Counted from the first letter of the stretch, positions 12,099 through 16,671 are shown. The stretch: 64,000 bases of DNA from Verrucomicrobiia bacterium (GCA_963664225.1 OY760937.1:2688001-2752000); one strand, 5' to 3'. Program-made: numbers and translations. The notes: generated by a model not told the origin, from the sequence alone.

Positions 12099-13256
12099 CT
12101 ATCTCGATTTGCCGAGGGGGAACACGATATTCCACGTGCGCGTGGCATCCTTCAGGTCCAGGCCGGGACCTTCCGCAGTGGCGCAGAAAAGGTGCGTCGG
12201 GACGCCATTCTCGATGAGGAGCTGCGGGCGTTCGAGAAATCCCTGCCGTGTGGTGCGGCCATCGCTCCAGCGGACCTGCCGAGTGTAAGCGAGCGTGGCG
12301 TGGTCGAAATCCCACTGGAGACCGTCCGCGCTCGTAACGTGTACTCCGGCAAATTTTTCACCGCAAATCTCCCCCGTCATATCCTTCATCAATGCCTGCA
12401 CGCGGCCGTCCTCATGCCAGAGGAACGGATCTTCGACGTGCGCAGGCTGGCCGCGGAAGAGCCAGGGCGTGGGTTGACGCTTCCACGGGCCGGTATAATG
12501 TGGCGCGTGTGCGACGCCGACCTGAAGGTTGCCAAGGTTCTCCTTGCGCGACTTGTAAGCGAGCAGGAACGAGCCGTCGGGCAGGGGACAAAGGGAGGGA
12601 TTGGTGGTGGCGATGGTATCCCACTCGCCCGGACGCGGTTCGAGGAGCGGGGTGTCGAGCCGTTTCCAGGGGCCGCGCACGCTCTTACTCGTGGCCAGGC
12701 CGATGCGTTTGCGTGCCCAGGTGGCGAGGTAACGCGGCGAGCGCCACACTTCGGGAGCCTGCGACGTCGGCGTGGGGCCGTCGTAGTTGGCGCCCATGTA
12801 GAGCAACAGAAACGTATCGCCCACCTTGCGGATATGGGGATTATGCGTGCTGCGGGCATCGAAGAAATCACCACCGCGCGGGGGTAACGCGATCTCGGCG
12901 AAGCGATAAGGGCCAGCGGGCGTGTCGGACTGGGCCCGCACAATCTCCGACATGAAGAGCCAATGCGGATGAAAGGGCACGGACTTCGGCACGCGCGACG
13001 CGAAGAGGTGGTATTTGCCATCCTCGCCGCGGATGGGCGCGCCGCACCAGACCCAATAATCAGGCAACTCGAATCCGCCGCCCACAACCGCAGGCTCAAG
13101 GCGCGAGAGGAAGGTCCGGGGTGCGGCCGGGGTGTCGCGCGGGACGCCCGAACTGGCGGCCCAGGCGCCCGATTGAAAAATCAGCGGAGCGGTCACGGTG
13201 GCCGCGCTGCAATGCGTGAGAAAGGCGCGCCGGTTCATGGTGTCAGTAAAGGTCAT
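12099..13256 (-). CDS. Tat-exported beta-propeller glycoside hydrolase (GH43-like)
   Basis: NRRAFL Tat motif; YHLFASR, HNPHIRK, EDPFLW and LERPQL propeller motifs. Confidence 0.75.
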   Translation of the reverse strand: MTFTDTMNRRAFLTHCSAATVTAPLIFQSGAWAASSGVPRDTPAAPRTFLSRLEPAVVGGGFELPDYWVWCGAPIRGEDGKYHLFASRVPKSVPFHPHWLFMSEIVRAQSDTPAGPYRFAEIALPPRGGDFFDARSTHNPHIRKVGDTFLLLYMGANYDGPTPTSQAPEVWRSPRYLATWARKRIGLATSKSVRGPWKRLDTPLLEPRPGEWDTIATTNPSLCPLPDGSFLLAYKSRKENLGNLQVGVAHAPHYTGPWKRQPTPWLFRGQPAHVEDPFLWHEDGRVQALMKDMTGEICGEKFAGVHVTSADGLQWDFDHATLAYTRQVRWSDGRTTRQGFLERPQLLIENGVPTHLFCATAEGPGLDLKDATRTWNIVFPLGKSR

Positions 13257-13699
13257 GGTTTGAACTCCCGGATTCGCAGGTTCTTGAACTGCACCTTCAT
13301 CGGCGGGCCAGTGTGCACCTGGACGGCAAGCAGGCCTGAGAGGGCGCGCCTTGGGTCGTTGTCGCGCACTTCGCTCATCACAACATCGTTGATACGAAGA
13401 ACGACCAAATTATTACGCACGATGACATGGTATTCATTCCAGTCGTTATCCCGGACATCCTTAATCAGTTGCTTCGGGTCACCCACGGTGCCGGCATCTT
13501 TGCACTCCCCTTTTTCAGTGTAGAGGACTTTGCGGCCGCGTTCAGCCAGCTTTTCGCGCAGGAGGTATTCCATCACCACGCCCGTCCACACGTGGTCAGC
13601 GGACATGTCCGCCTGCACTCCGACAAGTGCCTCCGCCTTGCTGCCGGGCGCGCGTTCCTTGCTGTGAAAATAGATGCCGGAGTTCCCTTGTATCTGATT

Positions 13700-13920
13700 T
13701 TCCATCTATTCTTGTTTTGTTTGAAAAGACGGAATAGATGGAACTGTCCTGCCGCCTGCAGGCGGCAGGACAGTGGCGCGAACGAGCTCGCCATTCCCTG
13801 GCATTGGTTTACAGCCAAATGCGTCGGGAGCCAGAGCCGTTCGTGTCTGTGTCCTAAACTCGAACCGTTGCTTGAGCGGCCTACCAAGTCCTGCTCGTAT
13901 TTACAAGAAAGAGCCAGAAC
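13700..13920 (+). ncRNA. IS110 bridge RNA (predicted; ends approximate)
   Basis: Donor guides ACCGTTGCT (13864-72) and TACAAG (13902-07) match the reconstituted circle junction. Target guides ccaTTCCCT (13791-99) and GGGAG (13826-30) match the insertion site. Each guide pair flanks an internal hairpin. Confidence 0.85.
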
Positions 13921-13923
13921 ACT

Positions 13924-14850
13924 ATGACCACTATCTACGCTGGCTTGGATATTGCCAAGCTGAGTCTTGATCTCCACCTGGCCGGTCGTTCCCACGATCT
14001 GCCCAATACCGCCGCCGGTCATCGCCAGCTCGTCGGACTCCTGGCGCAGCATCCGGGCGCTCACGTCATCTGTGAAGCCACGGGCGGCTATGAGCGTGAG
14101 GTGGCTGACGCCCTCCATCATGCCAGCATTCCTGTCAGCATCATCAATCCCGCCCGCGTCCGGCATTTCGCCCGCGCCCAGGGACAACGGGCCAAAACCG
14201 ACCGTATTGATGCCGCTGTCCTCTCCGCCTATGGGCAGGCCTTTGCCCCCAAACCCACGCCGGCGCGTTCCGAGGTGGAGGTGCAGTTGACCGAACTGGT
14301 TCGTCGCCGCAACCAGGTCCTTGAACTGCTCTTTGCCCAACGCAATCAGGCCGAACGCCTCACGCTGCCCAAGTTGCGCCGCCAGGCCCAGAGCTTGGTG
14401 CATCGTTTGGAGCGGGATGTGCAGGGAATCGAAACCCAACTCAAAGCGCTGCGCCAGAAAACCACAGAATTGGATGAGCGCGCAAAGAAACTCGAGGCTA
14501 TTACTGGGGTGGGCACAATTACCGCCTTGGCTGTTTTGGCTGAGCTGCCCGAGCTGGGCACGCTCAATCGGGGGCAGGCCGCCGCCTTGGCCGGACTGGC
14601 TCCACATCCCCGAGAAAGCGGGCAGTGGCAAGGCCGTCGCTCCATCGGTGGCGGAAGAGCCGCCGTTAGACGTGCCCTCTACATGGCTGCCATGGTCGCT
14701 GCGCGCTGCAATCGCCAACTCAAGGAGTTCTACAAACGACTCCGATCGGCGGGCAAGCCCGCCAAAGTCGCGTTCACCGCCGTCATGCGCAAACTCATTG
14801 TTCTGATGAACCAAATCCTCAAAAATCCACATTTTGAACTCTCAAATTAA
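13924..14850 (+). CDS. IS110 family transposase (DEDD RuvC + Tnp20 domain)
   Basis: GLDIAK, CEATGGY, KTDRIDA and GLAPHPRESG (catalytic Ser region); KPAKVAFTAVMRKL. Confidence 0.96.
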   Translation: MTTIYAGLDIAKLSLDLHLAGRSHDLPNTAAGHRQLVGLLAQHPGAHVICEATGGYEREVADALHHASIPVSIINPARVRHFARAQGQRAKTDRIDAAVLSAYGQAFAPKPTPARSEVEVQLTELVRRRNQVLELLFAQRNQAERLTLPKLRRQAQSLVHRLERDVQGIETQLKALRQKTTELDERAKKLEAITGVGTITALAVLAELPELGTLNRGQAAALAGLAPHPRESGQWQGRRSIGGGRAAVRRALYMAAMVAARCNRQLKEFYKRLRSAGKPAKVAFTAVMRKLIVLMNQILKNPHFELSN

Positions 14851-15969
14851 ATACCGTTGCTCCCTGCAGCTTATAGCAGCACTTGAGGTCAAACTCCGCT
14901 GGCTCTCCGTTGGTCCAGATAAGGAAGTTGTTCTCCGGGATGCCACCTTGTGGGGTAATGCCGGTGATGCAGCCACCCTGCACCGACCAATAGTTCGTGT
15001 CGCCACGCCAGCCACGGAGGTCCGTGCCATTGAATATGGGGACGAAACCCTTTTCCAAATCCGTCTTCGGCTGCGGCACCGGCTTTGTGTCTGCGGCCAA
15101 ATCGCCCAGTGCAAATTGCACCCCGTCCTGCAAAAGCCGAAGGAATGCAGGGTTGCTGAATGCACTCCTGTTGTGGCCGAGGGCTGAGTAAAAGCTGCGC
15201 CCATTTCCGCAACTTTGAATCCACGCCAGCGGATAGTCCTTGTCCGGGCGCTGGCCTTTATCCGCGGTCTCGCTCAGGTCGAGGCTGACCAGCACGCGCA
15301 CCTTTTCGCGGGCATACGGCGGCTCGAATTGAAACAGTTCATCCCGCCAGGGGAGTGGCAGCGCGCTCTTCCCGCCCCATGAGGCATTGAGCGGATGCGT
15401 TGGGTCTTCGACGCGAATGCTGGCGGGCTCCGACTCCCACGGGTGGTTGCGGAACCGCCCGCCGATGAGTTGGCGGAACTCCGCCTCCGTCGGATTGGCC
15501 GGGTCTTTTTCCCACACGCTCGCGCTGTGAATGCCGATAATTCCCTTGCCTCCGTGCACGAAATCAACGAGTGCCCGCATCCTGGCCTCCTCGGTCTCCG
15601 GCGGACCGAAGACGGTGAGCATGGTGTTGTTCATCACCACGGCATCAAATTCCCGCAACCGCACTGGCGTGAAGACGCTGGCATCGACGCTGGTGGTTGT
15701 CGTAAACGCGCCCGTCTTTTCCCCCATCAATTCCAAAGCGCGCGTGGCCCATGCGATGGCTTCGTCGTGGTAAGTCCCGCGAGTGAAGTTGTAGATGAGC
15801 AGGCGGTGCGCGTGGGCGGGCTTCGCCGTGGCATCGCCAGGGAGCTTCTGTCGCAAAAGTGCCACGTCCGCTTTAGTCAATTTTGGAAGTGCTCTTTCGG
15901 GATCAGCCCATAACGTGGATGGGGCAAGGCAGGTGGACAAATACAGCAGCAGCGTTGGAATCTTCATTG

Positions 15970-16671
15970 TCATGGTTTGGTAATTACAGAACGGCCAATG
16001 GAGGAGCCTGATTTTGAGCCACGTGAACGGTGCTGCTCCTTTTGCAGGAATTCGACGAGATGGTTCGAATGCGAAGCAAGAAAAGTCGAGGCGAGTTCTG
16101 AATTCCCACGGTCCAGCGCCTCCGCAATCGGCAGATGTTCGAGCGCAATCGCCACCGGGTCGGCGCTTTTCAGATAATCCATCGTAAACCGCGTGCGAAT
16201 TTGGAAGAACAGGGAGTCCCATATTTTCAACAGGACACTGTTGCCTGAAGCCTCGACAATGGCTCGATGGAAAGTCTGGTTATGTTCCTGAAAAGTCGCA
16301 AAATCCCCGCCCCGGGCTGCTTCCACGATGGATTCGGCTGCCTTTCGAAGCGTCTGGCAATGATGCTTTAATCGTAGCACCCCCTGTTTTGCGGCAAGCG
16401 CTTCAAGTGCCGCGCGCACTTGGAACGCCTCAATGGTTTCAGATGGGCTCGGATGTCGAACCGATGCGCCTTTGTTGTTCTGCGCTTCGAGGACGCCCAT
16501 GGCGACCAGTTCGCGAATGGCTTCACGAACCGGGGTGGCGCTGATGGCAAACTCCTTCACCAGCGTGATCTCCACCACACGTCGACCGGGCGGCAGATCG
16601 CCCCGGGCGATGCGGTCCAGCAGAGTGTCACGGATGAACTCGCGAAGCGACTTAAGGTGTGGCATGGGCAT
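15970..16671 (-). CDS. GntR/FadR-family (FCD) transcriptional regulator
   Basis: wHTH ISATPVREAIREL; FCD motifs FHRAIVEASGN and EHLPI; stop overlaps the next start (ATGA, 15970-73). Confidence 0.92.
   Translation of the reverse strand: MPMPHLKSLREFIRDTLLDRIARGDLPPGRRVVEITLVKEFAISATPVREAIRELVAMGVLEAQNNKGASVRHPSPSETIEAFQVRAALEALAAKQGVLRLKHHCQTLRKAAESIVEAARGGDFATFQEHNQTFHRAIVEASGNSVLLKIWDSLFFQIRTRFTMDYLKSADPVAIALEHLPIAEALDRGNSELASTFLASHSNHLVEFLQKEQHRSRGSKSGSSIGRSVITKP

Follow-up and report, generated by a model that had tools for sequence, protein, structure and literature searches.

The closest described system to the element considered here is IS621 of Escherichia coli, with its 177-nt bridge RNA. 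In the published accounts of this system (PMC11208160, PMC11208158), the RNA is encoded in the left end and is made up of a 5′ stem-loop and two further stem-loops that contain internal loops, the CT core takes part in all four guide pairings, and ATA/TAT triplets flank the donor. The structural account (PMC11208158) depicts two U of the right donor guide as unpaired and names the catalytic residues as D11, E60, D102, D105 and S241. Bridge RNAs are reported as predicted in 85.7% of the IS110-group elements of ISfinder, with covariation over thousands of orthologues, and mismatch tolerance in IS621 is described as low (PMC11208160). The same source separates the IS110 group, which has a long left end, from the IS1111 group, which has a long right end and long subterminal inverted repeats. 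Reported lengths of these repeats in the IS1111 group are 7–17 bp. A literature search for bridge RNA in Verrucomicrobia returned no report, and the supplements of PMC11208160 may already list relatives.

The present work analyzes a 64,000-nt stretch of a Verrucomicrobium genome, referred to as the window, in which positions 13689–14861 very probably constitute an intact IS621-type element of the IS110 group, whose left end would encode a bridge RNA of about 180–220 nt. An IS621-type recombinase guided by a bispecific bridge RNA, with CT as its core, had been proposed beforehand from inspection of the sequence alone (hereafter the sequence-only reading), and the proposal is upheld by protein homology, the left-end position of the RNA, covariation within its fold, and covariation of the guides with flanks and ends. 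The parts of the element and of the gene that it interrupts are as follows.

13689–14861, + strand: insertion sequence of 1173 bp, from the first left-end base through the right CT core; copy B is identical and the flanks diverge at these points
13687–13688, + strand: left CT core dinucleotide (the target core at the left junction), preceding TGTAT in all five of the genome's own copies and in relatives
13689–13693, + strand: right donor (RD) half-site TGTAT, the left-end terminus; together with the core, 7/7 pairs to the right donor guide
13924–14850, + strand: IS110-family DEDD/serine recombinase of 308 aa (PF01548 and PF02371)
14853–14861, + strand: left donor (LD) half-site ACCGTTG with the right CT core; the right end lies 11 nt past the stop codon
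13253–13686, − strand: C-terminal fragment of the disrupted host gene (the rest of the 3-keto-disaccharide hydrolase domain)
14862–16222, − strand: N-terminal part of the interrupted host gene (a ThuA domain, then the initial third of the 3-keto-disaccharide hydrolase domain)

The termini thus written, CT/TGTAT (13687–88/13689–93) and ACCGTTG/CT (14853–59/14860–61), mark exactly where the genome's other four copies cease to resemble the one in the window. CT is found at both junctions in 10/10 own-genome copies of the two families present, and target duplication is limited to this core, with none beyond it. Since the single long open reading frame spans 13924–14850 (308 aa), the left end comprises 235 nt of non-coding DNA and the right end only 11 nt. 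Long terminal or subterminal inverted repeats are absent, the donor site being flanked by ATA/TAT triplets only. The 9-mer ACCGTTGCT occurs twice in the window, in the left end (13864–72) and at the right terminus (14853–61), compared with a chance expectation of 0.44; at least two occurrences were seen in 9/100 shuffles.

The CT dinucleotide is also the split point of the ThuA/3-keto-disaccharide-hydrolase gene. With 13689–14861 (the element including one CT) deleted, the host frame is recovered and reads ...KLQGGNSGIYFH..., and the ortholog in genome G427, 75% identical, is uninterrupted and reads ...KLEGGNSGIYFH.... The empty target GAGTTCC-CT-CCCTG, which had been deduced without these comparisons, is therefore well founded. 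The strings from which the two loops had been read were all located in the sequence where they had been placed: the donor strings ACCGTTGCT(TG) at 13864–74 and TACAAG at 13902–07, with the GAGCGG/CTGCTC stem (13874–79/13891–96, including one G-U pair), and the target strings ccaTTCCCT at 13791–99 and GGGAG at 13826–30, with the GCATTGG/CCAAATGC hairpin (13801–07/13815–22) and the CGAACG.GCTC / GAGC.CGTTCG stems (13779–89/13834–43).

The recombinase carries the two Pfam domains DEDD_Tnp_IS110 (PF01548, E 1.6e-19) and Transposase_20 (PF02371, E 3e-20). Its top match in the structure database is the IS621 transposase (8wt6, E 1.6e-37, residues 5–301), followed by the ISCro4 transposase (9t56, E 3.6e-37, residues 5–301), the likeness to ISCro4 being known from the protein alone. 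D9, E51, D93, D96 and S232 align opposite residues 13, 62, 104, 107 and 243 of the 8wt6 chain, which, minus a constant offset of 2, are the catalytic D11, E60, D102, D105 and S241 of IS621. Both recombinase domains and all five catalytic residues are thus common to the two elements, although the overall protein similarity is moderate (E 1e-37). The element had been called intact and compact. The first term is borne out by the open frame and by a second copy, 100% identical, at another site; the second is not distinctive, as the solved IS621 chain has 328 residues and the frames of relatives run to about 310–340 aa.

As in IS621, the structured RNA region occupies the left end immediately upstream of the gene, in the order 5′ stem-loop, target loop, donor loop.

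13701–13742, + strand: extra 5′ hairpin (CCATCTATTC.../...GAATAGATGG), upstream of the conserved RNA body, from the fold
13743–13774, + strand: 5′ stem-loop, a perfect G+C-rich stem of 14 bp with a 4-nt loop, from fold and covariation
13775–13847, + strand: target-binding loop module, with outer stem 13775–89/13834–47 and inner hairpin 13801–09/13813–22
13849–13922, + strand: donor-binding loop module, with outer stems 13849–55/13916–22 and 13859–61/13911–13 and inner hairpin 13873–80/13889–97

The lengths of the three modules (32, 73 and 74 nt) are close to those of IS621, for which nucleotides 1–33, 34–98 and 110–177 are given in the published numbering. A blastn search of the complete E. 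coli genomes with 13743–14400 detected no nucleotide similarity, so that the two RNAs could not be aligned directly. Among the Rfam 15 families, none matched near its gathering score in 13000–15500, with E up to 1. A weak minus-strand PrrB/RsmZ match (14739–14870, E 0.52), overlying the 3′ end of the recombinase gene, was dismissed as chance, scoring 17.1 bits against a gathering score of 44.

Folding and covariance among homologs had been suggested as a check of the bridge RNA, and both came out in its favor. The fold of 13700–13923 has an energy of −102.8 kcal/mol (z −7.44; 0/200 shuffles equally stable), and in it the target-loop and donor-loop stem-loops each contain a large internal loop. 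The minimum-energy fold pairs UUCCC with GGGAG within the first of these loops, a pairing that was omitted from the model because it was taken as a by-product of the pyrimidine-rich target. An alignment of nine sequences was then used, comprising the window copy, one sister copy, a second family of the host genome and, from Verrucomicrobia MAGs, six relatives (58–80% protein identity). In this alignment 96.7% of the cells are paired, compared with 34–39% when partners are slid by 1–3 columns, and 22/54 pairs change on both sides, a number matched by 0/500 column shuffles. Such changes occur in 10/14 pairs of the 5′ stem-loop, where 100% of the cells are paired, in 5/14 pairs of the target-loop outer stem and in 5/9 of the target-loop inner hairpin; the donor-loop inner hairpin and one short stem are uninformative, since they are invariant across the nine sequences. 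The donor-binding module is highly conserved and can be recognized in relatives at 30–45% protein identity. When a covariance model of 181 positions, built from the nine sequences, is applied to more distant relatives from 400 sampled genomes of the phylum, most of them yield a full-length match adjoining the recombinase gene on its upstream side (25–78 bits, 30–50% protein identity).

The hairpin at 13701–42 is without a counterpart in the 177-nt IS621 RNA. The segment 13689–13742 folds at −19.0 kcal/mol (z −7.1), and relatives have a hairpin of different sequence at the same place. In distant relatives (L044, L054, L051, L045, L041, L042, L058, L037 and L046), a structured module of about 100–145 nt, located between the left terminus and the 5′ stem-loop, replaces the 42-nt hairpin and includes a recurring GAGAATGG...CGTCGGAGG motif in a long hairpin; this module could serve as an accessory domain of the RNA or have a regulatory role. 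A separate observation concerns the bridge RNA of L030 (L030:234-403), from which a deletion of about 11 nt has removed the right target guide along with some of the outer stem, and which is probably a decayed copy.

Within the two loops, six short segments can be assigned as guides.

13791–13799, + strand: left target guide CCATTCC with CT, matching the left flanks of copies A and B at 6/9 positions
13824–13830, + strand: right target guide TCGGGAG, of which GGGAG (13826–30) pairs with CT-CCC; 5/7 with the right flanks of A and B
13831–13832, + strand: target-loop handshake guide CC, in which C13831 pairs with donor position 7 (G14859)
13864–13872, + strand: left donor guide ACCGTTG with CT, identical to the right-end terminus at 9/9 positions
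13899–13907, + strand: right donor guide AUUUACAAG, in which ACAAG pairs with CTTGT and AU with AT; two U are unpaired, as in IS621
13908–13909, + strand: donor-loop handshake guide AA, mismatched to window target positions 7 and 6 (C, C)

This layout agrees with the published description of IS621 in several respects. The 5′ strands of both loops are sense to the top strand and include the CT, the 3′ strands are antisense, and the core is CT; a handshake position follows each 3′ guide, and ATA...TAT triplets surround the donor site. By the published base numbers, the RD half-site CT-TGTAT is the same in both elements, and so is the shape of the right donor guide, with A-U, two unpaired U and xCAAG. 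The left donor half-site and the target differ, and donor position 12 forms an A-T pair here, compared with the G-T pair reported for IS621. For the donor loop, the earlier left guide stands at 9/9, while the right guide needed refinement: the interrupted form AU/..ACAAG (13899–900, 13903–07) accounts for 7/7 pairs, compared with 6 for the continuous TACAAG originally proposed.

The donor guides follow the element ends through a range of relatives. Right-end variants include ACTGTTG, ACAGTTG, ACCGCTG, ACCACTG, ATTATTG, AGAGTTG and ACCGTTA, and left-end variants TGTAG, TGTCT, TATCT and TGGTT; the left donor guide changes with the right end and the right donor guide with the left end, a covariation that is partly circular because the ends were located via the guides, except in the genome's own multi-copy families, which define the ends independently. 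The base after the right target guide forms a Watson-Crick pair with donor position 7 in 21/21 evaluable cases, the window included (18 C-G, 3 U-A). The donor-loop handshake base is less regular with respect to target position 7, with 13 Watson-Crick pairs, 2 G-U pairs and 7 unpaired among 22 evaluable lineages, and the window copy is one of the seven, its A13908 facing C.

The 5.78-Mb host genome harbors five copies of the element (A–E), A being the window copy. Copy B is identical to it over 1173/1173 bp at a separate site, and the identity of C, D and E to A is 93.4%, 93.1% and 91.5%, respectively. The 100% identity of A and B, whose frame is open, indicates that their lineage has copied itself recently. 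The recombinase of copy C (G000:C1:1738417-1739593) has a premature stop at codon 270, and copy E (3172066-3173224) an 18-bp in-frame deletion (window-equivalent 14151–14168), the bridge RNA region being intact in each. Differences between the two lineages are concentrated in the target guides: the non-core bases of the left guide differ at 7/7 positions (CCATTCC in A/B, TTTCCTT in C/D/E) and those of the right guide at 3/5 (13824–26; TCGGGAG in A/B, CGAGGAG in C/D/E). Between A and C, this amounts to 10/12 non-core target-guide positions, compared with 10/223 other left-end positions (Fisher p 1e-10), and the donor guides show no difference. The insertion sites, GAGTTCC-CT-CCCTG for A and CAGCTCC-CT-CCCCG for B on the one hand, CCTCCTT-CT-CCTGG for C and E and TTCCTTC-CT-CCTCC for D on the other, differ in step with these guides. 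The flanks of C and E are paralogous, similar sequences (...AATACTCCTCCTT-CT-CCTGGGG...); their target is polypyrimidine, and its other strand resembles a ribosome-binding-site region (AGG-AG-AAGGAGGAG).

The relation between guides and flanks was extended to other lineages by locating the ends of relatives from their donor guides and comparing the match of each flank to its cognate RNA and to those of the other lineages. For the left flank and the 5′ loop strand, the mean match is 6.74/9 positions when cognate and 4.54 when non-cognate (18 lineages); for the right flank it is 6.18/7 and 4.05, respectively (19 lineages). Out of 26 lineages, 8 were excluded on the left and 7 on the right for contig ends, ambiguous ends or poor alignment of loop and model; automatic location of the left end failed or was ambiguous in L010, L042, L043, L037, L058 and L056. 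The left end of L046 was misplaced, the true end lying inside the segment, and as this lineage was kept despite scoring poorly, the left-flank test is conservative. Covariation of guides with targets among homologs, one of the points on which the sequence-only reading had staked itself, was thus found: 0/20000 permutations reached the observed mean on either side, though the resulting p-values overstate independence because the lineages are related to each other. In L054, whose recombinase match spans residues 4–235 only, a sequence closely like its own reconstructed target (CACGTC-CT-ACACC.) lies on the opposite strand about 880 nt downstream of the bridge RNA, and this copy may be rearranged.

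The fit of the window copy to its own target is the least complete part of this picture, and it allows an alternative in which the element is a genuine IS110 member with a bridge RNA, yet the A/B lineage is mis-targeted or degenerating. Its guides would then no longer specify the landing site, and its two insertions would be off-target or "half-match" events, with the CT core and a few adjacent bases as the main determinants. The A and B sites indeed share only ..TCC-CT-CCC.. with their guides (6/9 left, 5/7 right), and the window site matches only in part, at left positions 4–7, the CT and right positions 10–12, all of them proximal to the core. The perfect guide-encoded 14-mer has 0 exact sites in the 5.78-Mb genome for either lineage, and the single site within one mismatch is unoccupied. 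To this may be added the mismatched handshake base of the donor loop and, from a preprint on IS621, an account of half-matched substrates in about half of the non-target insertions, which may be relevant to the A and B sites. This alternative is nevertheless unlikely, if far from negligible. The left flanks of A and B fit their own guide better than they fit the guide of any of the other 17 lineages, the mismatches are all distal (left target positions 1–4, right target positions 13–14), the proximal 8–9 bases are common to two independent sites, and the identity of A and B with an open frame speaks for recent self-copying. The target specificity ascribed to the element is in keeping with the guides and sites that differ in step between A/B and C/D/E, with the qualification that the window site itself matches only at 6/9 and 5/7.

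On the preferred reading, that of a functional IS621-type element, the bridge RNA body (13743–13922) would comprise the 5′ stem-loop, the loop for target binding and that for donor binding. By analogy with IS621, the RNA would be transcribed and the element would pass through a circular intermediate, whose junction would read ACCGTTG-CT-TGTAT. In the donor loop, ACCGUUG-CU on the 5′ strand and AU..ACAAG on the 3′ strand would pair with this joined right-end/left-end junction. The 308-aa DEDD/serine recombinase, assembled as a tetramer, would hold the two loops and carry out strand exchange at the CT core, with a handshake step as in IS621. Strand exchange at CT would lead to insertion without duplication beyond CT.

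A sigma-70 consensus scan of 13500–15000 gave no plus-strand promoter, and no terminator was found there. The integrated copy (+ strand) and the computed circle junction likewise contained no sigma-70-like promoter with at least 8/12 matches; the best candidate by eye, TTGCTT-17-TATTCT across the junction, reaches only 7/12, is not kept in the second family and was rejected. Public runs with the element comprise 23 entries, all of them Logan assembled contigs; the two RNA runs contain 0.04 of the words, and no raw-read or RNA run has a usable share of the element. The contigs of four public runs show no joints, and so neither the empty site nor the circle junction, rare forms being beyond what contigs can show; their loose ends (13684–87, 14863–64) are no more than the flanking sequence of the other copies in the genome.

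The lack of an identified promoter in these scans, together with the position of the structured region, could also be accommodated if the left end were mainly a 5′ untranslated leader or a DNA-level terminal structure serving translation control, transposase binding or as a barrier to read-through, with its matches to ends and flanks incidental. The 3′ arm of the donor-loop outer stem reaches the start codon, the purine-rich AAGAAAGAG (13905–13) occupies the expected position of a ribosome-binding site, and the perfect 14-bp 5′ stem-loop could serve as a transcription barrier. What makes this reading very improbable is the behavior of the loop bases, whose changes parallel those in the host DNA around each insertion site and those at the element's other end, 1 kb distant, and that of the handshake base, which tracks donor position 7 in every evaluable case. 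Membership in the IS1111 group, with a seekRNA-type guide downstream of the gene and a left-end structure that is no guide, has the recombinase family and the principle of RNA-guided target choice in common with the window element and is practically refuted by the anatomy, as the right end ends 11 nt past the stop and has no room for an RNA, the left end extends over 235 nt, and only ATA...TAT triplets flank the donor site in place of long subterminal inverted repeats.

The host genome also contains a second IS110-group family of 1197 bp, in five near-identical copies with about 70% nucleotide identity in parts to the window element (L006–L010; G000:C1 near 2332285, 3487954, 2578189, 2568954 and 1761766). 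Its RNA has the same architecture and its donor ends are nearly the same (ACCGTTG-CT-TGTAT), yet its target guides, TTCCAAT-CT and ACGGCAG, differ from those of the window element. All 5/5 copies lie in a repeated palindromic element, ..TTCCA(A/G)(C/T)-CT-GCCGT.., one of them at ATCCTGT-CT-GCCGT. These sites resemble the reported targeting of REP elements by IS621, in contrast to the window copy, which is situated in a coding gene. In this family the left donor guide (ACCGTTAC) and the right end (ACCGTTG) disagree at position 7.

The differences between sister copies raise the hypothesis that natural re-programming of a bridge RNA has been caught in this genome; in addition, the hairpin at 13701–42 may be an accessory domain that IS621 lacks. 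Taken jointly, the two proposals are possible but doubtful. Sisters that are 92–93% identical may have exchanged nearly the whole target guide (10/12) with the donor loop and stems fixed. In copies C and E the donor-loop handshake A faces T, which suggests that A/B derive from a C/D/E-like ancestor in which the target guide was replaced without handshake compensation; the derived A/B lineage may then have moved without re-matching this base, landing at sites that match only the core-proximal 8–9 bases. The conserved hairpin, for its part, may correspond to the larger ..GAGAAUGG..CGUCGGAGG.. module of distant relatives. If the re-programming took place in this way, the ortholog would recognize its target in a seed-like manner that tolerates distal mismatches, and it would not need the handshake in vivo.

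Bridge recombinases are under development as programmable tools for DNA insertion, and new orthologs are being screened for activity. The window element adds an ortholog from a Verrucomicrobium, with four unambiguously readable guides. Since bridge RNAs have already been predicted for thousands of elements, it is one more member and not a new kind, a real but ordinary example of a recently described class. It is accompanied by two natural controls, namely a sister lineage whose target guide differs and, in the same genome, a second family whose targets are REP-like, and these make it well suited to tests of mismatch tolerance and of the handshake rule. Aside from these controls, the element confirms the published rules rather than extends them, and the retargeting seen within a single genome gives it some added value.
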